Below are positions 1 through 25,838 of a stretch of DNA of 27,380 nt, piece by piece. A model generated the notes under the pieces. The model was not told the origin of the DNA. It did not search any database and saw nothing but the letters and a program-made list of their open reading frames with translations. The DNA comes from a virus. Taxonomy: Duplodnaviria > Heunggongvirae > Uroviricota > Caudoviricetes. The stretch is from the IMG/VR virus record IMGVR_UViG_3300010280_000022, one strand, 5' to 3'. A program made the position numbers and the translations under genes. The number at the start of each line of letters is the position of its first letter. Positions within the stretch are counted from its first letter, which is position 1.

Positions 1-2420
1 CATATATTATTTGCCGACCTATGTACATACGTATTTACTATCGGCTTAGATGAAGATGAACCCTTAGCTCTCGAACCATCGATAAGACAGTCAGACACTG
101 ACATAAATCCTGAAACAAGGTTGTTACTCACATCCCAATCTATGGCCATTTTGTCAAAATAAACACTGCCAAGCATATATGTTTTTCCACCAGAATAGCC
201 TACAAACCTACGTAATACACCACCATAATGCTTGATGTAACTCCTAGTCATTCCTGATGTGATATTCATATATACAATATCCATATTGCACTCAATTCCG
301 TAAAGGCAAGATGCATATTCTGATATGTGTCCAACATAACATACAACTTTACATCCAGTTGATTCAGATGGAGTCAATTTAATTACAGGAATATCTCTTG
401 TAGATGCATCATGATATGAAATTGCCAACTCAAATCTTGCGTCTTTACCATTAAAAGTGCTACCAGTAAAATCTATCAACGACGGCATTTTAAAGTCACG
501 CAAAGGTGATGGCTGTGTTTTAAAGTTATTTTTAAATGATAAAATATTGAGTGTTACCTCAGAAGGCCAGTATATATTCGTCTGTACAATTATATTCTTC
601 GGAAGATGTAAAGTGCGCGGCTGGACAGGGTTCCCGGACGCGATAACATTGTCTGAACGACACAAAATCATATCCACCAAACCGGATGAACCCTCTGGAA
701 TACGAACGGATCCCCCACGGACTATGAAATCACCTTTATGTTCACCGTAATCCGTACGTACTCCAAACGGCCCTATGTGAGAATTGATGATCTGTGTTGC
801 CTCGTCGAACGCCCCAGTACCAACCAAGACGCCGCCAGGTATCCGACAATTATCAACAAGAATCTTTGAGCACCCATAGTGCATGTGAAAGCTATCAATA
901 TTACTGTCTCTCACAACTACATCCCTGCAATAGTTGCCGTCAATAGACCTCCACCCCTTACCCACTTCGCAGCCGATAAAAGTATGTTTAAGGGTGTACT
1001 CCATAGCTACGGTATAACGAGAATTATTATCCGTCTGCGTAATACCCGCACTCGTTAATCTCCAGTTAACTCCGTAGGTGGTAGAGCTACCAAAAATATT
1101 AGAATCTGTAGCTGTCATCCCCATGTCATTAAAGTAAACAACCTCAACATCAACTAAAGAACGTTGGATATCAAAAGCATAGCGTGAAAATTGACCAGTG
1201 AAACGCGGCAATACAATTTTATTACGCTTAGTTGGTAGCTTAAATAACGTACAAGTTACGGGGTCGTTGTAAGTATTTTTAAGACTGTAAGCCAATTCCC
1301 CTGGCTTAGTCATAAAGTTCACTTCACCTTTATATCTTGGGCTGAATACACCACCAATCAACCTATAGAGATCAACCTCTGTTGGACTTATTATTTTGAC
1401 GAGCGAATTACCCCACCCTGCTAAATCCTCAACACAAGAAAAAACTGAGGTTAACTCGTTCAATGGGTATGTTGATATATTAACTTCCTTTATATAATTA
1501 TCATCATCCCTTTCATCTTTATACACAACCTTTCCGTTTGTTAAGTGGAAAGTACAATTACTCAAATCAAAATCACCATATAGATATGTTTCTTTATCTA
1601 TGGTGAAAGTTAGTGGCGCGCTTGAGTATATTTTTATTGGTGTATTTTTATACTTATAAAATATAGCATTAAGCTGATCACTATTCCGCTCACCGTCTAG
1701 TGCGCTTATATCATATATATATAATCTGTTTTCTAATCCACCAATTAACTTATACCCATCAGGTTTAGCTAATTCAATTAGAACGTCTGAGGCAGATCCA
1801 GATGGTGGTAATACGACAAATGGATTACCATCATTATCAAAAGCAACCATCTTGTTTGCTCTTTCAATAGCATCAGGTAAGGAAGGTATTGATTCAGGAA
1901 CACGAAGAGTTTTGCTTAGATTGCTACCAGCAAGCGTATCCACGTAATTTTTTGTTGCCGCATCCTGCGGAAATCTGGGATCTCTCAGGTTACGAATATA
2001 ATTGTTCAAAGCATCATAATAATTAGCAATAAATGATGGTTTACGCAGAGCCAACCTGAACCAACTTCTAACCTGCTGTATCAGCATCGTCAGTTTATCG
2101 AATGCGTCTTCATGCACCTCAGCGAAGAACTTACCCTGGTTGCGCAGATCGGTATCCTGCGTAACCGGTAGCTCTCTTGATATAGAAATCTGATAACCGT
2201 TAACCAACGCCTTCGACAGAATTACATTGCCGCCGTTATACCCTCCCGCACCAGTGACTATGTAATCAGTATCAAGAATCAGCTCTGTGATGTTCTCGTT
2301 CAGGTCAACAACCTGCACTACTAAATCAGATTTCTGGAAAATCCTGAAGGTATAAGGGAATGTCGTTGTAACACCGTTACCGGTGTATTCGTTGTGGTCA
2401 ACTTCGGTTGAGACCGTCAT
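1..2420 (-). CDS. Tailspike / tail fibre protein, 3'-truncated by window edge (at least 806 aa); T7 gp17-like N-terminal anchor domain plus AT-rich divergent C-terminal region
   Basis: Minus frame open from ATG at 2420 (GGAG 8 nt upstream) to position 1; absent from ORF track because no stop lies in the window. N-terminus MTVSTEVDHNEYTGNGVTTTFPYTFRIF..LVVQVVDL..DTDYIV fits the conserved podovirus tail-fibre N-terminal pattern. Confidence 0.8.
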   Translation of the reverse strand, partial: MTVSTEVDHNEYTGNGVTTTFPYTFRIFQKSDLVVQVVDLNENITELILDTDYIVTGAGGYNGGNVILSKALVNGYQISISRELPVTQDTDLRNQGKFFAEVHEDAFDKLTMLIQQVRSWFRLALRKPSFIANYYDALNNYIRNLRDPRFPQDAATKNYVDTLAGSNLSKTLRVPESIPSLPDAIERANKMVAFDNDGNPFVVLPPSGSASDVLIELAKPDGYKLIGGLENRLYIYDISALDGERNSDQLNAIFYKYKNTPIKIYSSAPLTFTIDKETYLYGDFDLSNCTFHLTNGKVVYKDERDDDNYIKEVNISTYPLNELTSVFSCVEDLAGWGNSLVKIISPTEVDLYRLIGGVFSPRYKGEVNFMTKPGELAYSLKNTYNDPVTCTLFKLPTKRNKIVLPRFTGQFSRYAFDIQRSLVDVEVVYFNDMGMTATDSNIFGSSTTYGVNWRLTSAGITQTDNNSRYTVAMEYTLKHTFIGCEVGKGWRSIDGNYCRDVVVRDSNIDSFHMHYGCSKILVDNCRIPGGVLVGTGAFDEATQIINSHIGPFGVRTDYGEHKGDFIVRGGSVRIPEGSSGLVDMILCRSDNVIASGNPVQPRTLHLPKNIIVQTNIYWPSEVTLNILSFKNNFKTQPSPLRDFKMPSLIDFTGSTFNGKDARFELAISYHDASTRDIPVIKLTPSESTGCKVVCYVGHISEYASCLYGIECNMDIVYMNITSGMTRSYIKHYGGVLRRFVGYSGGKTYMLGSVYFDKMAIDWDVSNNLVSGFMSVSDCLIDGSRAKGSSSSKPIVNTYVHRSANNI

Positions 2421-2524
2421 GTTAAATCTCCAGATAGTCGCAGCACCCGTTGCGCCGCATATCCGGTTATTCTATTACCTGAAAAACCATATATGGATAG
2501 ACAACCCATAAATACGAACAGATA

Positions 2525-2539
2525 TTACCTTTCAGGTGA
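2525..2539 (+). promoter_or_regulatory. Dyad motif site A: TTACC-TTTCA-GGTGA
   Basis: One of five intergenic copies of ATTACC-N5-GGTRA; lies between tailspike start and the LexA-box gene. Confidence 0.45.
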
Positions 2540-2578
2540 TTCGCAAAACGTGCTGGATAGCAAATAAATTATTTGATA

Positions 2579-2615: not shown

Positions 2616-2873
2616 ATGCAGCAGTATCACTATCCACTGGAAGACGGATTTACCGAAAGGATTCACACGCCGGGAGGCGTCAGATCACTGGTGGAGGGAT
2701 CGCACTTGATGAAATTACTCCGGGATCTCGATAAGGATGGATTTAATGTCGATGGCCCACTTGCCGAACTGACTGCACTGATTAACTACGTCACCAGCTC
2801 ACAGATGTCTATGCGGGATCTGCAAACACATCTCGACTATTGTGCCGAACAATTACGAAAACAAACCAGATAA
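2616..2873 (+). CDS. Small protein (85 aa) paralogous to the C-terminal domain of the adjacent antirepressor; candidate SOS-inducible antirepressor or modulator
   Basis: ORF-track frame 2598..2873 begins at TTG; in-frame ATG at 2616 has GGAG 8 nt upstream. Motifs P.GV..L.E.S.LM.LL..L..DG..V.G..AELT and LRD.QTH..Y are shared with residues ~150-231 of the 3189..3884 protein. Confidence 0.7.
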   Translation: MQQYHYPLEDGFTERIHTPGGVRSLVEGSHLMKLLRDLDKDGFNVDGPLAELTALINYVTSSQMSMRDLQTHLDYCAEQLRKQTR

Positions 2874-2919: not shown

Positions 2920-3010
2920 ATTTACATAGCACTCCTCTTGTGCCATAGTAATCGGGCACTGGCAAAATCCAGTGCCGGGATTGGCGTCCCGGATTACTAA
3001 AAGGCGCATT

Positions 3011-3031
3011 CACCGCGCAAGCGGTTTTTTT
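3011..3031 (+). terminator. Rho-independent terminator between the small LexA-controlled gene and the antirepressor gene
   Basis: Stem ACCGC/GCGGT with GCAA loop followed by six T. Confidence 0.6.
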
Positions 3032-3188
3032 ATGCGTATAGCACGGCCACATTCGTATTATGGTGGGCTGTGTGGGGGCACCGAAAGGTGCGCCGGGTCC
3101 TTTTAGCCGGTTACGCCAACCCTGCACAGTTCACCACCAACCGATTGGCGTCGGTAGTGGTGATTAACCAGACTAAAAGGTAACCACT

Positions 3189-3884
3189 ATGACAGCTACA
3201 AAAAGCACGTCCATTTTTTCTTTCGAATCCCAAGCCGATATACGGGTAATCGTCATTAATGGTGAGCCATGGTTTATCGCTTCAGATGTTTGTCGGGCTA
3301 TAGGCATAGCAAACCATCGAGATGCTGTTCGAAAACTTGATGATGATGAGAAGGGCGTCGCTTCAACCGACACCCCTGGCGGTGAGCAAGAATCGATCAT
3401 CATCTCCGAGTCAGGCCTCTACACACTGATCCTCCGCTGCCGCGATGCGGTGACACCAGGCACTATCCCATACCGCTTTCGTAAATGGGTTACAGGTGAG
3501 GTTCTTCCTCAGATCCGCCGCACCGGAAGTTACATTAAAAACTCGCTCACGCAGGAAGAACGCATAAAGATGGTTGCCGACCAGGTAGCCAACGCCACGG
3601 CGTCAGCAGTGATGCAGGCGATGAAGATAGAGAACAAAACCTACAGTGCCCCACTGAAGCCCGGCTACCGCAGCCTGATTCATTCGCCGTCTGGTGTTCT
3701 CGGCCTGACGGAGAACTCACTGCTGATGAATTTGCTGAACCAGTTACAGGAAGACGGGCACGATGTATCGGGCGCGGCGGCGGAACTGACCACCATGTTC
3801 TGCTACATCGTCGGTGTGAGCAAATGCCTGCGTGATATCCAGACTCACGCGGAGTACATCAACGACAAAGCAGGATTCTTCTGA
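3189..3884 (+). CDS. Bro-N family phage antirepressor (231 aa)
   Basis: N-terminal IRVIVINGEPWFIASDVCRAIGI...LDDDEKGV is the Bro-N/antirepressor signature; AAAAGG upstream of ATG; long structured leader. Confidence 0.8.
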   Translation: MTATKSTSIFSFESQADIRVIVINGEPWFIASDVCRAIGIANHRDAVRKLDDDEKGVASTDTPGGEQESIIISESGLYTLILRCRDAVTPGTIPYRFRKWVTGEVLPQIRRTGSYIKNSLTQEERIKMVADQVANATASAVMQAMKIENKTYSAPLKPGYRSLIHSPSGVLGLTENSLLMNLLNQLQEDGHDVSGAAAELTTMFCYIVGVSKCLRDIQTHAEYINDKAGFF

Positions 3885-3958
3885 CAGAACGGCGGCACAG
3901 GGATGTGCCTTTAAATAATTCTGTACAGATTGCAGACTGGGGGGTGAATAGAGTACTA

Positions 3959-3973
3959 TTACCTTACGGGTGA
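3959..3973 (+). promoter_or_regulatory. Dyad motif site C: TTACC-TTACG-GGTGA
   Basis: Same ATTACCTT left arm as other sites; sits ~40 nt upstream of the mini-ORF and terminator that precede the membrane-protein gene. Confidence 0.4.
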
Positions 3974-4063
3974 TCCATAGCGATTAGGCACCGATACAGG
4001 AGGAGCCCACATGAGAAAATTTGACGAGTACGAAGGCGTTTAACATTCGGATAGTTTAATGAC

Positions 4064-5496: not shown

Positions 5497-8049
5497 TTAT
5501 TTACCTAGCATGAACTGCGATGGTGGGATCAGAAAGCCGTTACCCTGCTCACGCTCAACACGGCGCTGATAACGCTCAAGAGAGCCTGGGTCAAGGGCAT
5601 CTTGTATCCGGTTCAATATTAAACCATTCATCGCCGTACGAAGCCAGAACACGTTGAGGAATGGCGTATTGTCAAGTGCCGTGCGATACCAGTCACCCAA
5701 ATCTGCATCCCCTCTCGTGGTCTGCTGGAGCAGCGTGATAATGCTGTCAGCGTTCGATGCTGCTGGCCCCATTAGCGACGTAACCGGCCCGGCCCCCATG
5801 CGGTTGACCTCGCCAAACATGAAGTCACCCAAGATGCCAAGACCGCCCCCCTGAGATGCGGCTGCGAGAAACGTCTTGGCATCTGCCGGGCGTGGTGTTT
5901 GCCCTTTCAGCATGAGTTTTGACTGCATGGAGATATAACCAAACATAGTCGCCCAGACAAAGAGGTTTGCAGCACCAAGGAAAGCCCCCTTCCCGTTACG
6001 TAGCAGCGCATTCGTCAGCGATCCGGTTTTCGACTCACCAAGCCCAGCAGGAATATAACCACGCCCGAATACTTCGCGTCCTAGTACGTTCTGCATGAAG
6101 CTTGCAGTGAACGATTTGTACTGACCAGCGAATCGTATTGCTTCCCCAGCCACCGTTCCTGGCACCGTGCCCATCTTCATAAACGCCTGCGTGCGATCGC
6201 CAGGCTCTGACATGGCGATATTCAGGCGGTCAAGGATGTAGCCGCGCAACTGCCCTTCCAATTGATCGCGTGCGTCAGCGATAGCGCGCTGCGTTGGTTT
6301 GATCCCCTTACTCTCTACATAACCGGCAATCACTTCGTCAGGCACGCCGCGGATGCCGCTGGTCGTCATGAACTTACGACCTTCGCTATCGGCCATGTCC
6401 ATGTTGCGAAAAATTTCCCACTCACGTTCGCCAATACCGTGCAGATCCAGCACGCGTCGCAGGTCTTCCGGTAGCCGCGCATGAGACTGGTCAGCATTCT
6501 TTGCAAGCCAGTTGGTTATCATCATGGCGTTGCTGTTGCGACCGCTCTCGGTCCAGAAGTTCATGAGGTTGTACTTAAAGAAAAGCTGCTGCGCGCGACC
6601 AAGCTTTCCATTCAGCGTGTCATCACCAGATATGCGCCGGATGATTTCCTGCGTCATGGAGTCGGAATAAACTCCGATAGAGGAAAGGATCTCTTTCTGC
6701 TCCGCGCTGTTGTAACGCGTGAAGCGGCCTCTCATAGCACCAAGCAACGCCTGCATAAAATTCTGCCCTTGGTAGCGCATCTCGGTAGCGGCGATAGGCA
6801 CGTCGTTAAACGATGAGATTACCGCGCCACCAAGTTGGCTCATACGCAACCAGCCGCGTACAGCCGCCGACGCATTGGCCCAGCCTACGCTGCCAGGAAT
6901 ATTTAGCGAGCCGTCAACCTGCGGCATTACGGTACGGTTAATGCGACGCACCTTCGTCATGTAGTCAGCCAACGCTGCCGGTCTTCCGGATTTGCTGATA
7001 TCTTCAGCAATGGCGTCCGTCAGGTACTTAAACATGTTCTGTGGGTTAGTGCCCAGTACGCGCATCATGCCCGTTGTGCGGGCAGCGCTGTTTAAGCCAC
7101 CAAACAGCGCTTCTCGCAGGCTGCCGGTGCCGAATTGCTGGTTGTACTCGTGCCAAGAGATACCATCTTTGAAGTGCAAAATTCGCTCTTGGCTGGCGCG
7201 TTTAGCTGCGTTCGCCGATCCCTTAAAGCCATTCATCCAATCGGGCTTTTCAGATGTAAGATGCACGCCGGAAGCCAGCCCGTTATAAATGTTACGCATG
7301 AACTGCTCGCGGTCAGCCACGCCGTCAAAAGTGCGCTCATCAAGGCGCGGGAGAATAGCATTTCGCCATGCATCATAACCTGCGGCGCGGATCTTCATGA
7401 TGTCGTGTGACTGGCGCACTATATAGCCCGGCTCTTTGCGTATCCATGCCCCGGCGCGGTTCTCATCAATGCGCGCAGTTTCCTGCCATTTCATGATGAT
7501 TTGTGCAGCGCTTACGGATTGCTTTGTCATACCGTCAGTTGACTGCCCGCGCCCTATGCGCCACATTGCATCGGCAATTTCCCGGTCATTGCTGCCGCTG
7601 GCGATGAATTGCACCAGCCCGGCACGGTCAAAATCGTAGTTGATACCGGAATGATACTTGCCGCGCAGTTGCGCCACCTCCGAAGATACCGACCGGCGGG
7701 CGCCGGTACGCGCATCGTTGCGGCCAACCAGCATTGCTTCAAGCCCGATATCCGGGCGGTCTTTCCAGATAGTACGAAGCTCTCTAAGTCGTTGTGCGGC
7801 AATACGGGCGTTGATTGCCTTATTGCGAGCCTCAATCTGTTTTGCCAGCATATCGGCATTGCTCAGTTCTTCCGCTGCGCGCATCGCGGCCTCTTCCAGA
7901 GACAGCGCCTCATTGGTCGCCAGAATTCGCCTAGTGGTGTCGTTCATGTCACGCACCAGCGACTCCATCTCATCGGAAGAAAGCTCGCGACCAGCGGCAG
8001 CATTTACACTGCGCTCGCACTGCGTCAAAAATTCGTTTGCTGCCATCAC
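5497..8049 (-). CDS. Internal virion/ejection protein (850 aa; T7 gp16-like position)
   Basis: Long ORF overlapping start/stop with neighbours, in the block between tail-tube genes and tailspike. Confidence 0.7.
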   Translation of the reverse strand: MMAANEFLTQCERSVNAAAGRELSSDEMESLVRDMNDTTRRILATNEALSLEEAAMRAAEELSNADMLAKQIEARNKAINARIAAQRLRELRTIWKDRPDIGLEAMLVGRNDARTGARRSVSSEVAQLRGKYHSGINYDFDRAGLVQFIASGSNDREIADAMWRIGRGQSTDGMTKQSVSAAQIIMKWQETARIDENRAGAWIRKEPGYIVRQSHDIMKIRAAGYDAWRNAILPRLDERTFDGVADREQFMRNIYNGLASGVHLTSEKPDWMNGFKGSANAAKRASQERILHFKDGISWHEYNQQFGTGSLREALFGGLNSAARTTGMMRVLGTNPQNMFKYLTDAIAEDISKSGRPAALADYMTKVRRINRTVMPQVDGSLNIPGSVGWANASAAVRGWLRMSQLGGAVISSFNDVPIAATEMRYQGQNFMQALLGAMRGRFTRYNSAEQKEILSSIGVYSDSMTQEIIRRISGDDTLNGKLGRAQQLFFKYNLMNFWTESGRNSNAMMITNWLAKNADQSHARLPEDLRRVLDLHGIGEREWEIFRNMDMADSEGRKFMTTSGIRGVPDEVIAGYVESKGIKPTQRAIADARDQLEGQLRGYILDRLNIAMSEPGDRTQAFMKMGTVPGTVAGEAIRFAGQYKSFTASFMQNVLGREVFGRGYIPAGLGESKTGSLTNALLRNGKGAFLGAANLFVWATMFGYISMQSKLMLKGQTPRPADAKTFLAAASQGGGLGILGDFMFGEVNRMGAGPVTSLMGPAASNADSIITLLQQTTRGDADLGDWYRTALDNTPFLNVFWLRTAMNGLILNRIQDALDPGSLERYQRRVEREQGNGFLIPPSQFMLGK

Positions 8050-9743
8050 ATCCCCCGGTTAATCATACAGGCGGCAAATGCCCGGAAAGCGTTGCTCATG
8101 CTATTGTCGCTGGCGTCGGTACGAATATCATTGAGTTTCTGGCGCAACGTGGTCGCAAGATCAGGGTTATCGACAGCGATATCGTCAAGCAGGGCGTTAC
8201 TCAGGTTGAGCTCGTTATCAAGGTCTGCAGCGGCAGCGGTAATTTCATGATCTGCCTTTTGCGTTTCTTGATAAACCCGATCGGCTGTTTCGCTTGCTGG
8301 GCGAGCCGTTTCATCAACCTGCCGTGCCGGGTTCTGTATGCGATGGATGGCGCGTTCACGCAGTGCCGGTTTGTGCAGTTCATAGAAGGGCTCAACATCT
8401 GGGCTACGTCCTTCCATCATGTGTGCCAGCGCAGCGCGATACGCCTGCTGGTTCACGTTCCAGTCAGCATCCCTGATGGCGCTTGCGGCAGTGCGAACTG
8501 CGCCAGCGACCGGCGACATCTGCATGCCGTCCAGGATCTGCTGCGCACGCTCGGAAATGGTGACTTTCAGGTCGTCGGGGATCTCGCCGCGGGAAATCTG
8601 AGACTGGCGCCAGCGCGCCTGCTCTGCTGTCGCGTGCTGCTCCAGCGATGTGTTGATCTCCTGATTGCGTGCAGCGATGGCGTCTTTCTCGGCCTGAATC
8701 TCTTTCAGTGCCCTAGAGCGCGCATCCTTAAACTTCATCCGCTGCCCCTGATACTTTTTGGTGCGCTGCTGCAGCGTCGCATCAAGCGAGTCAGCATGAC
8801 GTTGATTAGCCGCAAGCTCGGCACGCAGGTCGGCAACGTTACCGATCTGCCCGCTCTGTAACTCCTGCTGGCGCGCCATATAGTCAGGAACCACGTCGTC
8901 ATAAGCCCGGCTGTATGCGTAGCTCTCCGCTTCACTGGAAATGGCCGCCGCCAGATCTGCATTAGCGCCAACCTCAGGGATATTCACGCCCGCCGGAATG
9001 TTGTCAGGCGTTATCACCGGGGTTGGCTGCGCATCGCCAGAAAACGCCGGGGACTCTCCCGTTGCAGCATCGGGAACGCGACGCGGTCGCACGATATCGG
9101 CGATAAGGCCGCCGCCGGCATGCATTAGACCGCCAGCCATCGTGTTAAAGAAAGTACTTTCCAACGCGTTGCTATAGGTGAAGTCGTCACCTTCCGCCGC
9201 CGCTGCCAGCCCGGTAAGCGGCACGGTCACCACAGCCTGCGCTGCCCCCATGCGTGCACCAGCAACAAATCGCTCGCCAAATCGGCCAAGCACAGAAGCT
9301 GCCTTTGCTTCTCCAGCGAACGGAACCAGCGCCAGCGCCACGTTACCAGGATCTGCCATTGAACCAGCTAGGCTGGCTGCGAAATTAAGCGGCGTGGCTA
9401 CCCATCCGCTCGGTGCCGACATCGCGATCTGCTGGCGTGCCAGAGAATCTTTGCGTTCGGCAATAACATGATCGAGAAAAGCCTGCGTAACGCCAGAATC
9501 TGGCACGTTTATGCTCTTTACGCCGTACTGCTTCAGGAGCTCATCCGCTTCCTGCTTACTGATAACTGTAGAGTTTGGGTCATTCGCCAGCGAGTCGGCC
9601 TGCGCAAAGCGGTAGCCGGACATGACCGGCCCCTCTTCAAATCCCTGCTTAAGGGAAGAAAGCAGCGATTCGCCAAGCCCTGCTGGCGCGTTGCCAATTG
9701 GCTGGTTAATGCCCTGTCCCGGATCATCTGTGTAAATTGGCAT
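8046..9743 (-). CDS. Internal virion/ejection protein (565 aa)
   Basis: Long Ala-rich ORF, ATGA overlap with downstream gene, in the internal-core block. Confidence 0.65.
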   Translation of the reverse strand: MPIYTDDPGQGINQPIGNAPAGLGESLLSSLKQGFEEGPVMSGYRFAQADSLANDPNSTVISKQEADELLKQYGVKSINVPDSGVTQAFLDHVIAERKDSLARQQIAMSAPSGWVATPLNFAASLAGSMADPGNVALALVPFAGEAKAASVLGRFGERFVAGARMGAAQAVVTVPLTGLAAAAEGDDFTYSNALESTFFNTMAGGLMHAGGGLIADIVRPRRVPDAATGESPAFSGDAQPTPVITPDNIPAGVNIPEVGANADLAAAISSEAESYAYSRAYDDVVPDYMARQQELQSGQIGNVADLRAELAANQRHADSLDATLQQRTKKYQGQRMKFKDARSRALKEIQAEKDAIAARNQEINTSLEQHATAEQARWRQSQISRGEIPDDLKVTISERAQQILDGMQMSPVAGAVRTAASAIRDADWNVNQQAYRAALAHMMEGRSPDVEPFYELHKPALRERAIHRIQNPARQVDETARPASETADRVYQETQKADHEITAAAADLDNELNLSNALLDDIAVDNPDLATTLRQKLNDIRTDASDNSMSNAFRAFAACMINRGM

Positions 9744-15876: not shown

Positions 15877-16484
15877 CAGGACAACCTCGCAATGGTAAAC
15901 TCATCAACCGGTGGCTGTGGTTCCTGTGATTCATTCTGGCTATGCGAGCCAGCACTAAGAATCACGCGATTGTACATATTGAGGGCAAACGTACCGAGGT
16001 CTGCATTCCCAGTCAGCGCCATGTTAATAGCTGCCGCAAGACGCCAGGCCAACGCCTCCATAAAAATGGCATCAAACATGTTCACATCTGAAACGCGAGA
16101 GACATACTTGAGCCATGCCTGCGGCTGGTCTGTGTAGATCAACTTTCCTGTTCCGTTGGTGTCTGCACCAACTTCGTACTGAACGCGCATTGCTGCTGTT
16201 GGATTGCGTACACCAGGAAGCATAATTTCAGTAATGCGCAGACAATCGGACGGGTACTGGTACGCATATTCCCAGTCAGGCGGTGGATTGCTCGTATCTG
16301 CAAGCGCCACGCGTTTGGTAGCAAAGTTCCAGTCAAAATCAGAAAGCACAGCATCACGGCAGGCCTCAAAATGCAGCGAACATTCCCCCGCTTCCTTGCT
16401 GGCTTCCGTCAGGCTGTTAATGCTGCGGCTGTTGCCAATATTGGACAGCGCACGATTACAGATCTCTACTACAGAGGCCATCAC
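15876..16484 (-). CDS. Tail tubular protein A-like (202 aa; T7 gp11-like)
   Basis: Size and position; N-terminal ICNRALSNIGNSRSINSLTE resembles the gp11 N-terminal pattern. Confidence 0.6.
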   Translation of the reverse strand: MMASVVEICNRALSNIGNSRSINSLTEASKEAGECSLHFEACRDAVLSDFDWNFATKRVALADTSNPPPDWEYAYQYPSDCLRITEIMLPGVRNPTAAMRVQYEVGADTNGTGKLIYTDQPQAWLKYVSRVSDVNMFDAIFMEALAWRLAAAINMALTGNADLGTFALNMYNRVILSAGSHSQNESQEPQPPVDEFTIARLS

Positions 16485-19685: not shown

Positions 19686-21361
19686 TGTGATTGCCCACCC
19701 TGACCACTAACTGCATTCGCCATAGCTGACAAAACACTCGGATCCGAAGTTTTAGCTTCACTTAGCGTCTTGGCACCCTGTGCCGCCGCCATCCCCATCG
19801 CCATCATTTGTTGCTGCTGTTGTTGCTGTGCCCGTTGCTGGCGAGCCTGCTCAACCTGTTCCTGCGGAACAATGACGGTTGGAGACACTCCGGACATATC
19901 AGCGAATGCATCGATCGCCTGATCAACGTTGAGTTTGTCGAGAGCTTCTGGTTTCGCTTGCGCAAGTTGACCAATGAAGTTAACCGTGGACGCCAGACTG
20001 GACAGGCCGATAGACTTCTGCGCCTGAGCCATGACGGAAATGTATTCGACCTTCAGGGGCATGCCTTCCATCGCGTCAGGCGGTGGCGGCAGCATGTTTT
20101 TACGCACCATCATCGAGAAAGCGCGGTCAATGAGAGGATTAAGACATTCGTCGTTCAGACGCTCCAGAACCGGCCCCAACATCAGAAGTTTTTCTTCTTT
20201 CATTTCGATCACCGCTTCAACAGGCATCGAGCGGGTATTGATGTTCTGCAACATCATGAACAGATCGACAAAGTAGGCGCTGTTAATGATTTGACGAGTG
20301 TCCTGAATGTCTGCCACCAGATCTGCTGTACTGGGGTTAACCAGATAAGCAGGCCTGAAGCCATCCTGACCAGTAATCTGATCGATATACGTGATGTCGC
20401 CAGGAAGAAGGGAGGCGCGCTGATTCTTGAGGGAAGTCGGAGCAACCATCGGCGGATTGGTGGCTTTATCAATCAACTGCGACTTGCGCTTCTGGAGAAG
20501 CTGCAATGCCTTAACAGGTCCAAGCGCCAGCATACCCGGGCATGATGATCCATAAACATCTTCGCCGTTAACTTCCCAGCGCGGAGCCATAATTGGAAAC
20601 TCATCAAATCCGGACTCACGCAACAACTTGTCGTTATCGCCACCAACCTCGTAATAAACCGATTTGAATGGCTTGTTCTTGCTATCCAGCTTCGAAGTAT
20701 CGCGGTCAATGTTCGGGTAAACCGAATGCATCACTTCAATCCACTTCTCGTAGGTGCCGCTTTCCCACATGCTTTTTACGGATTCGCTGACGTTATTTAG
20801 CCCGAACTCCTGAACAAGCTGACGAACAGTCATAGAGAACTTGCGAAAACAGGTGTCCACACTGCCACGAGGTGAGTTAGCCAGGTAGTAACTGCCTATC
20901 GGGAATGGCATTGTGCGAATGATGTCCTCGTCATCCTCCAGCACTGCCATTGCACCAGTGCTGTATGTGCCGAGGCTTCCGTATAACTGCGGCAGCGACT
21001 GATAGAGATTCGACTTATTGAACATATCGTTCATGCGGTTCTGCACCGCCTCAAGCCACAACTTAACAGGGCCATAATCCATCATTTCAGGATCTGGCGT
21101 AGCCAGGCGAAACCACGGACGCGCGGGGCTTGTGATGCCTGACATCATGCCACTAGCGAGAGTGCGCGCCGCCATAGTCCCGGTCGAATCAATAATGCGT
21201 GTATTGCGTCGATCGTTACGGTTGACCTCAGAAGTCAGAAAGCGGGAACCACGCGGGTTGATGTAATCACTCAACTCGCGCCAGTGCGGCTCGAACGACT
21301 GACGCTCGCTTTCAAGTTGTGCGAACTGTTTGTTCAATCGCTCTTTAGTTGTTTCCGCCAT
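19682..21361 (-). CDS. Portal (head-to-tail connector) protein, T7 gp8-like (559 aa)
   Basis: Q-rich stretch followed by MMAMGMAAAQGA near the C-terminus and an ERL...P N-terminal pattern recall T7 gp8; GGAG 8 nt upstream. Confidence 0.8.
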   Translation of the reverse strand: MAETTKERLNKQFAQLESERQSFEPHWRELSDYINPRGSRFLTSEVNRNDRRNTRIIDSTGTMAARTLASGMMSGITSPARPWFRLATPDPEMMDYGPVKLWLEAVQNRMNDMFNKSNLYQSLPQLYGSLGTYSTGAMAVLEDDEDIIRTMPFPIGSYYLANSPRGSVDTCFRKFSMTVRQLVQEFGLNNVSESVKSMWESGTYEKWIEVMHSVYPNIDRDTSKLDSKNKPFKSVYYEVGGDNDKLLRESGFDEFPIMAPRWEVNGEDVYGSSCPGMLALGPVKALQLLQKRKSQLIDKATNPPMVAPTSLKNQRASLLPGDITYIDQITGQDGFRPAYLVNPSTADLVADIQDTRQIINSAYFVDLFMMLQNINTRSMPVEAVIEMKEEKLLMLGPVLERLNDECLNPLIDRAFSMMVRKNMLPPPPDAMEGMPLKVEYISVMAQAQKSIGLSSLASTVNFIGQLAQAKPEALDKLNVDQAIDAFADMSGVSPTVIVPQEQVEQARQQRAQQQQQQQMMAMGMAAAQGAKTLSEAKTSDPSVLSAMANAVSGQGGQSQ

Positions 21362-21582: not shown

Positions 21583-21672
21583 ATCAATGACTCCGTACGC
21601 AATTAAATTATTACCAATTTAACCACATATGATTTATTTATCGTAGACAGTTGACATTTAACGCACGAATTA

Positions 21673-21687
21673 TTACCTTTCAGGTAA
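21673..21687 (+). promoter_or_regulatory. Dyad motif site B: TTACC-TTTCA-GGTAA (perfect inverted repeat)
   Basis: Perfect palindrome 17 bp downstream of a TTGACA hexamer (21651-21656); heads the tRNA/moron insertion. Confidence 0.5.
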
Positions 21688-22009
21688 CCAAAGAGTTCAT
21701 TCCGGTTACTAACCTGACTGGCTTGTCGTTAAATTGAACAGGTGGAGTGAGCTTTTATTTTGATCAGTACGGCGTATGGCACATGCGCCGATAGCGGTCT
21801 GGATACGTTTAAGGGGCACCCTCCCTTGCTCGGGCAAACGAACCAGGTAGCCGGAATGTGCAAGTCGAGCGGTTTTATTCCGCGCACGGGGATTCACCAT
21901 CCCGGCGATTCGGTGTGACGCCTCGGAAGAGACGAGGGTACAACGATGAGAGCATTTATGGAGCCGCGACAAAGTGTGGTGCCTTAACAGGCTAAGTGCT
22001 CTCAGCGTT

Positions 22010-22086
22010 GTGGCATTAGCTCAGTCGGACAGAGCAACCGCCTTCTAAGCGGTTGGTCGCAGGTTCGAATCCTGCATGCCACGCCA
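22010..22086 (+). tRNA. tRNA-Arg (anticodon UCU, reads AGA), phage-type
   Basis: Acceptor stem GTGGCAT/ATGCCAC, D-arm AGCTCAGTCGGACAGAGC, anticodon loop CTTCTAA, T-arm GCAGGTTCGAATCCTGC, discriminator G plus CCA. Confidence 0.85.
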
Positions 22087-22273: not shown

Positions 22274-22289
22274 GCTTGATGACCGCAAA

Positions 22290-22304
22290 TTACCTTAAAG
22301 GTAT
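22290..22304 (+). promoter_or_regulatory. Dyad motif site D: TTACC-TTAAA-GGTAT, abutting TATAAT and the moron ATG
   Basis: ATTACCTTAAAGGTATAATcATG; right arm overlaps an AAGG Shine-Dalgarno-like element 7 nt from ATG at 22309. Confidence 0.45.
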
Positions 22305-22308
22305 AATC

Positions 22309-24599: not shown

Positions 24600-25192
24600 T
24601 GATTACCATCCTGACGTTCTTTGAGTCGCTTCCTGGCTGCTGCTATGCGATCAGCAATTGTCACATTCACATTAACATCCAGACGTTCTTTGAACGCGTT
24701 GACATCAACATGCTTACCAATCAGCTCAAGGTTCTTCACCTTGTCAGGCCATTTAATTTTTTTGAGGATTGTCTCTATCGAATCCTCGTTCATGTTCATG
24801 ATGGTCGATGACAGATCAAAGCCACTAAGCGTAGTGCGCCAGATTTTCGGCCACTCACGGATTGGTTTAAGGCTCCCATCGTCGTTGAGGATGTCGATCA
24901 CGTCCATCTGGTCGATCTCCACCAGGCGCATGAGAACGTAATCAGCACTGACGCGCATTCGTTTGTTGCGCTCCTCCATCAACTCGGCAATCCGTTTTTG
25001 AATGCGTTCATCGCGCATCATGACACTGGCTTTAACTGCCGCTGTATTTGGGGAGAATCCTGCGTTAATCGCTGCCTGAGTCTGGTTTTCAGGCGTTTTG
25101 ATGTATGACTGGCAATAAGCCTCCTGCATTGCTGTGAGCGGCTTAAATTGCGTTGATTTGCGTTTATAGGTTTTAGGTTCAGCAGGCATCAT
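24596..25192 (-). CDS. terS: Terminase small subunit (198 aa)
   Basis: ...LELIGKHVDVNAFKE... is a terminase small-subunit type signature; start moved to ATG at 25192 because the first 26 residues of the ORF-track call are a Thr/Ile-rich read-through. Confidence 0.65.
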   Translation of the reverse strand: MMPAEPKTYKRKSTQFKPLTAMQEAYCQSYIKTPENQTQAAINAGFSPNTAAVKASVMMRDERIQKRIAELMEERNKRMRVSADYVLMRLVEIDQMDVIDILNDDGSLKPIREWPKIWRTTLSGFDLSSTIMNMNEDSIETILKKIKWPDKVKNLELIGKHVDVNAFKERLDVNVNVTIADRIAAARKRLKERQDGNQ

Positions 25193-25201
25193 AACCACCG
25201 T

Positions 25202-25231
25202 GGTAATAGTTACCGTTGTGGTAATAGTACC
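25202..25231 (-). repeat. Tandem palindromic repeats GGTAATAGT(T)ACC x2 in the terS leader
   Basis: Copies at 25202-25214 and 25220-25231, 10-40 nt upstream of the terS start. Confidence 0.5.
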
Positions 25232-25232
25232 A

Positions 25233-25261
25233 TGCAAAATAAAGCCGCCATAGTTGGCGGC
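25233..25261 (-). terminator. Rho-independent terminator between the nin-like genes and terS
   Basis: Minus-strand GCCGCCA-ACTA-TGGCGGC followed by TTTATTTTG. Confidence 0.6.
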
Positions 25262-25266
25262 AGTAT

Positions 25267-25500
25267 TCAAAGTCCATCAAATCCATCGTAAAAACTCTCG
25301 TCAAGATACCCTTCCCATTTACCGCGAATGAAAATTACATCCTCGCCGCAAGGGTGCTGACTGTCGATAACTATATCCCTCCTGGCGCAACCATACTTAT
25401 GCATGAGAAATTTAACCTCTTTCGGAAAATTTGCTGAGTTATCTCTCATATCTTCAAGGTCGTAGCGTATTTTTGGCATAACACCTTCGTGACATGTCAC
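25267..25500 (-). CDS. Hypothetical protein (77 aa)
   Basis: ORF in a compact minus-strand array with overlapping stop/start codons. Confidence 0.5.
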   Translation of the reverse strand: MTCHEGVMPKIRYDLEDMRDNSANFPKEVKFLMHKYGCARRDIVIDSQHPCGEDVIFIRGKWEGYLDESFYDGFDGL

Positions 25501-25838
25501 ACTATTAATTTCGTTTCATGCCAGCCTTTGGTCACCCAGCATTGCGAGTCACCATTACACGGGCATGAATTCACAGGAACTCTCTCGCCGCACTTACCGC
25601 AACGTTTTCTGCTGATCGATTTTATACGCCCGTGCACGCGAGCATCATCCTGGCGGATAAGTAACGCAATATACTCACCAAATTCGTAAGGCACACGCCC
25701 GGGGCGACGCGTGGCACAGTTACGCTCCAGCATTTCAATTTCCTGAGCATCAAGCACAATCTCCAGCTTACGTACACCGGATGCAGCTTGTCTGGCTCTC
25801 TGAGCGGCTTTGCGCTCTGCTGCTGATTTAGCCATCAA
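25497..25838 (-). CDS. Hypothetical basic protein with C-terminal Cys cluster (113 aa)
   Basis: CGKCGERVPVNSCPCNGDSQC suggests a zinc-binding motif; N-terminus Lys/Arg/Ala-rich. Confidence 0.5.
   Translation of the reverse strand: MMAKSAAERKAAQRARQAASGVRKLEIVLDAQEIEMLERNCATRRPGRVPYEFGEYIALLIRQDDARVHGRIKSISRKRCGKCGERVPVNSCPCNGDSQCWVTKGWHETKLIV

Follow-up and report, generated by a model that had tools for sequence, protein, structure and literature searches.

Directly upstream of terS, the gene for the small terminase subunit, of an E. coli prophage we found two adjacent dyads that are probably operators of the prophage repressor: a homologue of the SPC32H repressor Rep would occlude an extended -10 promoter here and so control the terS-terL packaging unit. 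Rep as the binding protein is something we infer from sequence comparison. The DNA analyzed is a single stretch of 27,380 nt, called the window below. According to the mechanism that we propose, transcription of the early-right operon would end at a rho-independent terminator, directly past which a weak extended -10 promoter for sigma-70 (TGgTACTAT, without a -35 element) would be located. In the lysogen a tetramer-acting HTH repressor, the SPC32H Rep homologue, would bind both dyads and either exclude RNA polymerase from this promoter or stop read-through, so that the packaging genes would be silent. Removal of Rep by the LexA-controlled Ant would then free the terS promoter.

Architecture of the terS leader

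Every phage gene in this part of the stretch is encoded on the minus strand, and along that strand the leader reads as a TGA stop, a hairpin, its T-tract, GCA-TGgTACTAT, site A, a single T, site B and G-ATG (Table 1). Each operator is a 17-bp dyad of two 6-bp half-sites and a 5-bp spacer; site B overlaps the Shine-Dalgarno sequence and reaches up to the first ATG of terS. On the plus strand GGTAATAGTTACC occupies positions 25202-25214 and GGTAATAGTACC positions 25220-25231. The repeat pattern GGTAATAGTTACC/GGTAATAGTACC had 3 matches across the window compared to 0.09 expected from shuffles, and a repeat search found GTGGTAATAGT as an exact direct repeat of 11 nt, with its two copies (25200-25210, 25218-25228) 18 nt apart. 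By searching for ATTACC-N5-GGTRA we recovered site A at 25225-25210 without mismatch, site B at 25207-25192 with 1 mismatch, and five other loci in the window (2524, 2904, 3958, 21672 and 22289). For the whole window this search resulted in 13 strand-matches, while 0.64 were expected and none of 100 shuffles reached 13. A chance origin of the motif copies is excluded.

The earlier note had placed the repeats about 10-40 nt upstream of the terS start and just past a terminator hairpin, and both the coordinates and our scan agree with this. It had further described them as everted palindromes composed of the same pentamers as ATTACC-N5-GGTRA. The pentamers are shared because the stretch holds two true copies of that motif; the everted palindromes, however, did not hold up as units and are merely junctions between elements. 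GGTAC-T-ATTACC joins the -10-like element to the left half of site A, and GGTAAC-T-ATTACC joins the right half of site A to the left half of site B. An Rfam search of the whole window at gathering thresholds gave no match at the terS leader and elsewhere only isrK, C4 and tRNA.

Table 1. Features of the terS leader and further dyads in the window (positions of the 27,380-nt stretch)
Feature	Position	Strand	Remarks
Dyad in divergent region between tail genes and small antirepressor gene	2524..2540	.	Syntenic with epsilon15 19895-19911
Dyad TTTACC-TTTGC-GGTAAA	2904..2920	.	Closely upstream of isrK/C4-like RNAs and Bro-N antirepressor gene
Dyad ATTACC-TTACG-GGTGAT	3958..3974	.	TACTAT before it, in the same register
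Dyad in portal/head operon leader	21672..21688	.	Syntenic with epsilon15 2931-2947 'repressor'
Variant dyad ATTACC-TTAAA-GGTATA(AT)	22289..22305	.	Overlaps TATAAT before the plus-strand ORF adjoining tRNA-Arg
terS, small terminase subunit, 197 aa	24596..25189	-	Terminase_2, Pfam PF03592 E = 1e-29; PHROG 51
terS start codon (second ATG)	25187..25189	-	Aligns with the sole ATG of epsilon15-type leaders
Operator site B	25191..25207	-	ATTACC-ACGGT-GGTTAT, 11/12; centre 18 bp from site A
Likely Shine-Dalgarno sequence GGTGG	25195..25199	-	Within site B; GG.GG core conserved in alignment
Operator site A	25209..25225	-	ATTACC-ACAAC-GGTAAC, 11/12 compared to the dyad ATTACC-N5-GGTAAT; orthologue of epsilon15 12..27
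Candidate extended -10 element TGgTACTAT	25224..25232	-	Putative; TG 25232-25231, TACTAT 25229-25224
Terminator T-tract	25236..25243	-	TTTATTTT
Rho-independent terminator hairpin	25244..25261	-	GCCGCCA-ACTA-TGGCGGC; terminator scan, RNA fold

The hairpin of the predicted terminator has a stem of 7 bp, 6 of them GC pairs, and a 4-nt loop followed by the T-tract; its tail is reported by the terminator scan as TTTATTTTG. It begins 5 nt past the TGA (25269-25267) of a co-directional 77-aa ORF. The orthologous hairpin carries a terminator annotation in the epsilon15 and phiV10 records, and the hairpin was found in most of the terS leader variants that we compared (see below).

For terS itself two ATG codons are available, at 25192 and 25189, and leader variant L132 lacks the first of them. 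PGAP annotations (e.g. NZ_CP025840) and the phiV10 record instead start terS at a TTG at 25270, giving a protein of 224 aa, and this start would enclose the terminator and both operators in the coding sequence. We rejected the N-terminally extended TerS because 7 of the 26 variants carry frameshifts or stops in the extension. Judged from the alignment, the conserved start of terS is the ATG at 25189 (197 aa), which matches the epsilon15 annotation, and a recurrent annotation error in PGAP and phiV10 is thus corrected.

Sequence identity of the region is 96-99% with phiV10, TL-2011b, ZX5 and many E. coli prophages, and about 80% with epsilon15, SPN1S and SPC32H; these values identify the window as an epsilon15/phiV10-like prophage of E. 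coli, of the Uetakevirus type. The leaders of the window and of epsilon15 align base for base, and the operators hold the orthologous position. In the epsilon15 record (GenBank AY150271.2) the sequence ATTACCAAAACGGTAA(T) at 12..27 is a protein_bind feature labelled 'repressor; lysogeny', located between a 'rho-independent terminator' (39646..39672) and terS (47..643), and six more repressor sites are annotated; these features are possibly computational predictions. Both phages thus have the same dyad, ATTACC-N5-GGTAAT, at the same place between the early-operon terminator and terS, and other epsilon15 dyads (in the portal leader, in the tailspike/ant region and flanking rep) are syntenic with those of the window type. 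Differences concern details: the spacer of site A is ACAAC in the E. coli window and AAAAC in epsilon15, the left half of site B is better in the window (ATTACC compared to ATTACT) while its right half is worse (GGTTAT compared to GGTAAC), and the 77-aa ORF ahead of the terminator is extra in the window. The epsilon15 record marks site A alone at the terS leader. By this alignment the element is the already annotated repressor operator of the epsilon15 type, here as a tandem pair, and is largely known; what we add is the second site, the register shared by the -10 element and the operator, and the corrected terS start. Full-text literature searches for the motif or for descriptions of the operators returned nothing relevant.

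Conservation of the leader and a candidate promoter

From terS loci in GTDB genomes and IMG/VR we obtained 26 distinct leader variants, representing at least eight genera, and aligned them. The invariant columns of this alignment are TG, TA, ATTACC, GTAA, TTAC, GGT and ATG. In contrast to these half-sites, the spacer of site A varies (ACAAC, ATAAC, AAAAC, ACGAC, AAAAT, TGCAT, TTCAT and others), all four bases are seen at position 2 of the site B spacer, and the base between TG and TA is G, T or A. The distance between sites A and B is 18, 19 or 20 bp. Invariant half-sites with free spacers are the signature of a site for a dimeric DNA-binding protein and not of an RNA helix, and the sequence pattern therefore points to the former. 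The earlier note was right to suggest a protein-binding type of control region for the packaging operon, and this region is conserved. The comparison with related terS leaders that it had proposed did not refute it, as the repeats are conserved. The second pair of its first palindrome is broken in 14 of 26 variants by the changing base between TG and TA.

Site B matches at 10 or more of 12 positions in the E. coli, Salmonella, Enterobacter, Citrobacter and Erwinia lineages. Klebsiella phage ST512-KPC3phi13.3 has kept site A and TGtTACTAT unchanged, but its site B is down to 7/12. Because of this degenerate relative and of the A-B spacing of 18-20 bp, site B may be dispensable, or it may be kept mainly as a ribosome-binding site. 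In the same Klebsiella phage (L172, 16150-16190) the ATG at 16187 aligns with the conserved start, and the annotated terS start at 16237 is probably too far downstream.

A umuD-like gene, with the N-terminal motif GFPSPAxDY, replaces the 77-aa ORF and the terminator in Pseudocitrobacter, Erwinia and Enterobacter relatives (L007, 2583-2942; L009, 2615-2944; L170, phage BUCT554, about 7860-8189; also L165 and L166). These lineages keep TGnTAGTAT and both dyads, with an A-B spacing of 20 bp. A divergent gene upstream of terS had been considered as proof of a promoter and was rejected, as the ORF listing shows the co-directional umuD-like gene.

TGgTACTAT fits the pattern of an extended -10 element, in which TGn directly precedes a TAnnnT hexamer, and the last two bases of TACTAT are the first two of site A. 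The TG, the TA and the final AT of this element are invariant or nearly so in the 26 variants, and the TG and TA are kept even in lineages with an unrelated upstream sequence, in which the co-directional umuD-like gene stands in place of the terminator. The bases flanking the other dyads are not conserved, and the -10-like conservation is therefore specific to the terS locus. A comparable arrangement was found at the PL-type promoter of 7 genomes: in every genome examined the middle OL dyad is part of a promoter whose -35 is perfect or nearly so (TTGACA or TTGACT) and is separated by 17 bp from a -10 element (G/A)AT(T/C)AT. This PL-type -10 element ends in the 'AT' of ATTACC, and TGnTA(C/G)TAT of the terS leader has the same register in all genomes checked. 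TACTAT agrees with the -10 consensus at 4 of 6 positions and the terS leader has no -35 element; as a scan of the leader for -35/-10 consensus promoters found none, the proposal of an extended -10 element draws on conservation and register only. On these grounds we lean towards TGnTAsTAT being a working promoter with a predicted transcription start near 25217. Counted from such a start, site A would span about -8 to +9 and site B about +11 to +27, which is the position of a repressor and not that of an activator.

Repressor, antirepressors and dispersed dyads

The window excludes the repressor gene rep. The E. coli 214-4 prophage (99% identical) has a repressor that is a full-length homologue of SPC32H Rep (PDB 5D50; 42% identity, E = 2e-53), and the dyads cluster at the rep homologue in this prophage and in six phage genomes. 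Homologues of the Rep DNA-binding domain are, within the phage collection, essentially confined to motif-carrying phages. In a search for a relative with a different operator, the half-sites proved common to all Uetakeviruses examined, although the repressors of E. coli and Salmonella have only 53% identity in their DNA-binding domains. SPC32H, for which a lysis/lysogeny switch of Rep and Ant is described (PDB 5D50/5D4Z), has the identical site ATTACCAAAACGGTAAT at 11-27 before terS. Rep of SPC32H is described in secondary literature (PMC9638917) as a tetramer with two pairs of DNA-binding domains, which recognises palindromic sites and which Ant disassembles; such a protein would suit two adjacent dyads. 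In the close relative ZX5, overexpression of the repressor reduced the holin and endolysin (late-gene) transcripts by more than 99.9% (PMC9782041), a result that is indirect and compatible with the repressor model. A Cro-like protein could use the same dyads.

The Ant protein of the window is 87% identical to that of SPC32H; its gene (2616-2873, plus strand) is preceded by a LexA box, TACTGTATATTTATACAGTT, at 2577-2596. Between 2577 and 3884 on the plus strand two antirepressor modules lie in tandem, the second of them consisting of isrK (2956-3031), a C4 antisense RNA (3056-3141; both by Rfam) and a Bro-N antirepressor gene (3189-3884), similar to immI of P1/P7. This additional P1-like module distinguishes the window from SPC32H. 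The dyad at 2904-2920 is embedded in a promoter-like context, TTGCAA-17-TATATT.

Scans of complete genomes gave a syntenic set of dyads in epsilon15, SPC32H, PAT1, BUCT554, Tyrion, Klebsiella ST512-KPC3phi13.3 and the E. coli 214-4 prophage. The set comprises 2-3 sites on each side of the repressor gene in an arrangement like OL/OR, two before the ruvC/DUF1064 gene, 1-2 before terS, one before the portal operon, 1-3 in the tailspike/ant region, one before the lysis cassette and one before int. The flanks of rep carry 3 + 3 sites in epsilon15, SPC32H and PAT1 and 2 + 1 in E. coli 214-4. Each Uetakevirus genome has 9-12 dyads with at most one mismatch, compared to 0.04-0.09 expected. Dyads that abut each other (17 bp from centre to centre) were also seen in epsilon15 (L005, 33340-33373) and in L168 (34389-34422), in the OR-like stretch that separates rep from the cro-like gene. 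Tandem pairs are therefore recurrent and could fit a tetrameric repressor. In the variant dyad ATTACC-N5-GGTATA(AT) the right half makes a perfect TATAAT, and the operator occupies the spacer of the promoter; the same variant is located in the int leader of epsilon15 (L005, 26881-26897). The tRNA-Arg gene close to the copy in the window (anticodon TCT; 22010-22086, plus strand) separates terL from the portal operon, in antisense orientation to the late genes, and is kept in SPC32H, ST512-KPC3phi13.3 and E. coli 214-4.

Upstream of the terS module the window encodes a gp49-like protein (25497-25838, minus strand) assigned to PHROG 536, 'transcriptional regulator'. The N-terminus of this protein is basic and its C-terminus carries a Cys-rich, zinc-ribbon-like motif; no Pfam or NCBIfam match was found for it. 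In Uetakeviruses its gene is the last conserved one ahead of the terS module; in ZF40 and Chlobot it is located elsewhere. The latter two phages, which have the gp49-like gene and their own Q-type regulators and lack Rep, contain zero motif sites, compared to 9-12 in the genomes that encode Rep.

Alternative readings and relation to known systems

The main alternative to a repressor-occluded promoter is that the sites act as a roadblock only: the leader would lack a promoter, the terS transcript would be supplied by read-through out of the early-right operon, and Rep at A and B would block elongation in the manner of the L5 stoperators and back the terminator. The missing -35 element and the scan without a consensus promoter would fit this reading, as would the location of both sites downstream of any plausible -10 element; moreover, where the umuD-like gene replaces the terminator, the operators would be the sole barrier between the upstream genes and terS. 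We nevertheless consider it unlikely, since the extended -10 TG and the TA are invariant in the 26 variants despite a changing middle base and a changing upstream context, the register is identical to that of the bona fide-looking PL promoter, and the strong conserved terminator would make read-through inefficient without an antiterminator, of which none was identified. The earlier note had proposed a site for a late activator or antiterminator; on this reading a late regulator, for example the gp49-like protein, would switch on the packaging operon or enable read-through of the terminator. The gene immediately upstream, where late regulators often sit, is indeed of the PHROG 536 class, and several late units have a copy of the motif ahead of them. 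The immunity-region promoters flanking rep, however, carry the motif just as well, and phages with a gp49-like gene and without Rep (ZF40, Chlobot) have no motif and do not carry this gene beside terS. The sites are located at or after the -10 element rather than at -40 to -60, and a terminator upstream of the sites is the reverse of the order of qut followed by terminator. Since the motif is found at the rep flanks and the orthologous epsilon15 site is annotated 'repressor; lysogeny', the sequence argues for a repressor operator, and a late-activator or antiterminator site is highly improbable.

Control at the RNA level, by a hairpin that hides the Shine-Dalgarno sequence and AUG of terS or by a protein-bound translational operator (the other proposal of the earlier note), might be suspected from the 106-nt leader, whose predicted fold has -36.9 kcal/mol (z = -6.2) and pairs ACCAC with the GGUGG of the ribosome-binding site. 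The strong fold arises because the terminator and the adjacent dyads lie in the leader and because the outer half-sites, left in A and right in B, are complementary. Pair counting among the variants gave 0-1 compensatory double changes, which is no better than in shuffles, indels of 1-2 nt between A and B displace the putative helices, and a transcription start near 25217 would leave the 5' arm outside the mRNA. We rejected the RNA-structure reading as there is no covariation, and regard a translational operator for terS as scarcely credible. Even less weight is given to a pac site, with the repeats as TerS-binding boxes at the 5' end of terS like pacL of SPP1/SF6. SPP1-type pac sites are located around the start of the terS gene, TerS of the window belongs to the Terminase_2 family, the epsilon15 annotation cites an HHpred match to the SF6 small terminase, and several deposited genomes are linearised exactly at this point. 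A pac site is expected to be unique, yet the motif occurs 9-12 times per genome, also around rep, and the starts of the records are copied conventions and not mapped ends. The activator/antiterminator, RNA-operator and pac readings each fail a defining test.

The preferred reading, repressor operators over a packaging promoter, resembles the cI/OL/OR system of lambda in having an HTH repressor, dyads over the promoter core and triple clusters flanking the repressor gene. Late genes of lambda are controlled indirectly, via Q antitermination, whereas here operators stand directly before the packaging, head, tail, lysis and integrase units. P1 C1 and gp71 of mycobacteriophage L5, which acts at 'stoperators', are cases in which one repressor uses a dozen or so dispersed sites, some of them in or before late operons, and dispersed sites located past a promoter can act as a block to elongation. 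Sites in P1 and L5 are asymmetric and the proteins unrelated, while the dyads described here are symmetric and mostly overlap promoter-like elements. As a bolder extension, which we put forward tentatively and hold to be doubtful, Uetakeviruses may have no dedicated late activator, and one tetrameric repressor acting on about a dozen dyads may gate every unit; at terS one tetramer would span A and B, occlude the promoter, cover the DNA of the ribosome-binding site and act as a stoperator-like roadblock. If this is true, the roadblock would stand in for the terminator in lineages that have lost it, and a principle of 'one repressor, all promoters' would apply, in which PL, the middle promoter and the packaging promoter share one -10/operator register. 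Control of every unit by Rep only would, however, leave the timing of early and late expression unexplained.

The importance of the finding is modest and a new kind of element is not revealed. A map of the promoter and operators is nevertheless useful to builders of reporter phages of the phiV10 or SPN1S type. Prophages similar to phiV10/epsilon15 are present in about a quarter of the complete E. coli genomes (1302 of 5426), and their packaging operon is most likely under the direct control of the immunity repressor.
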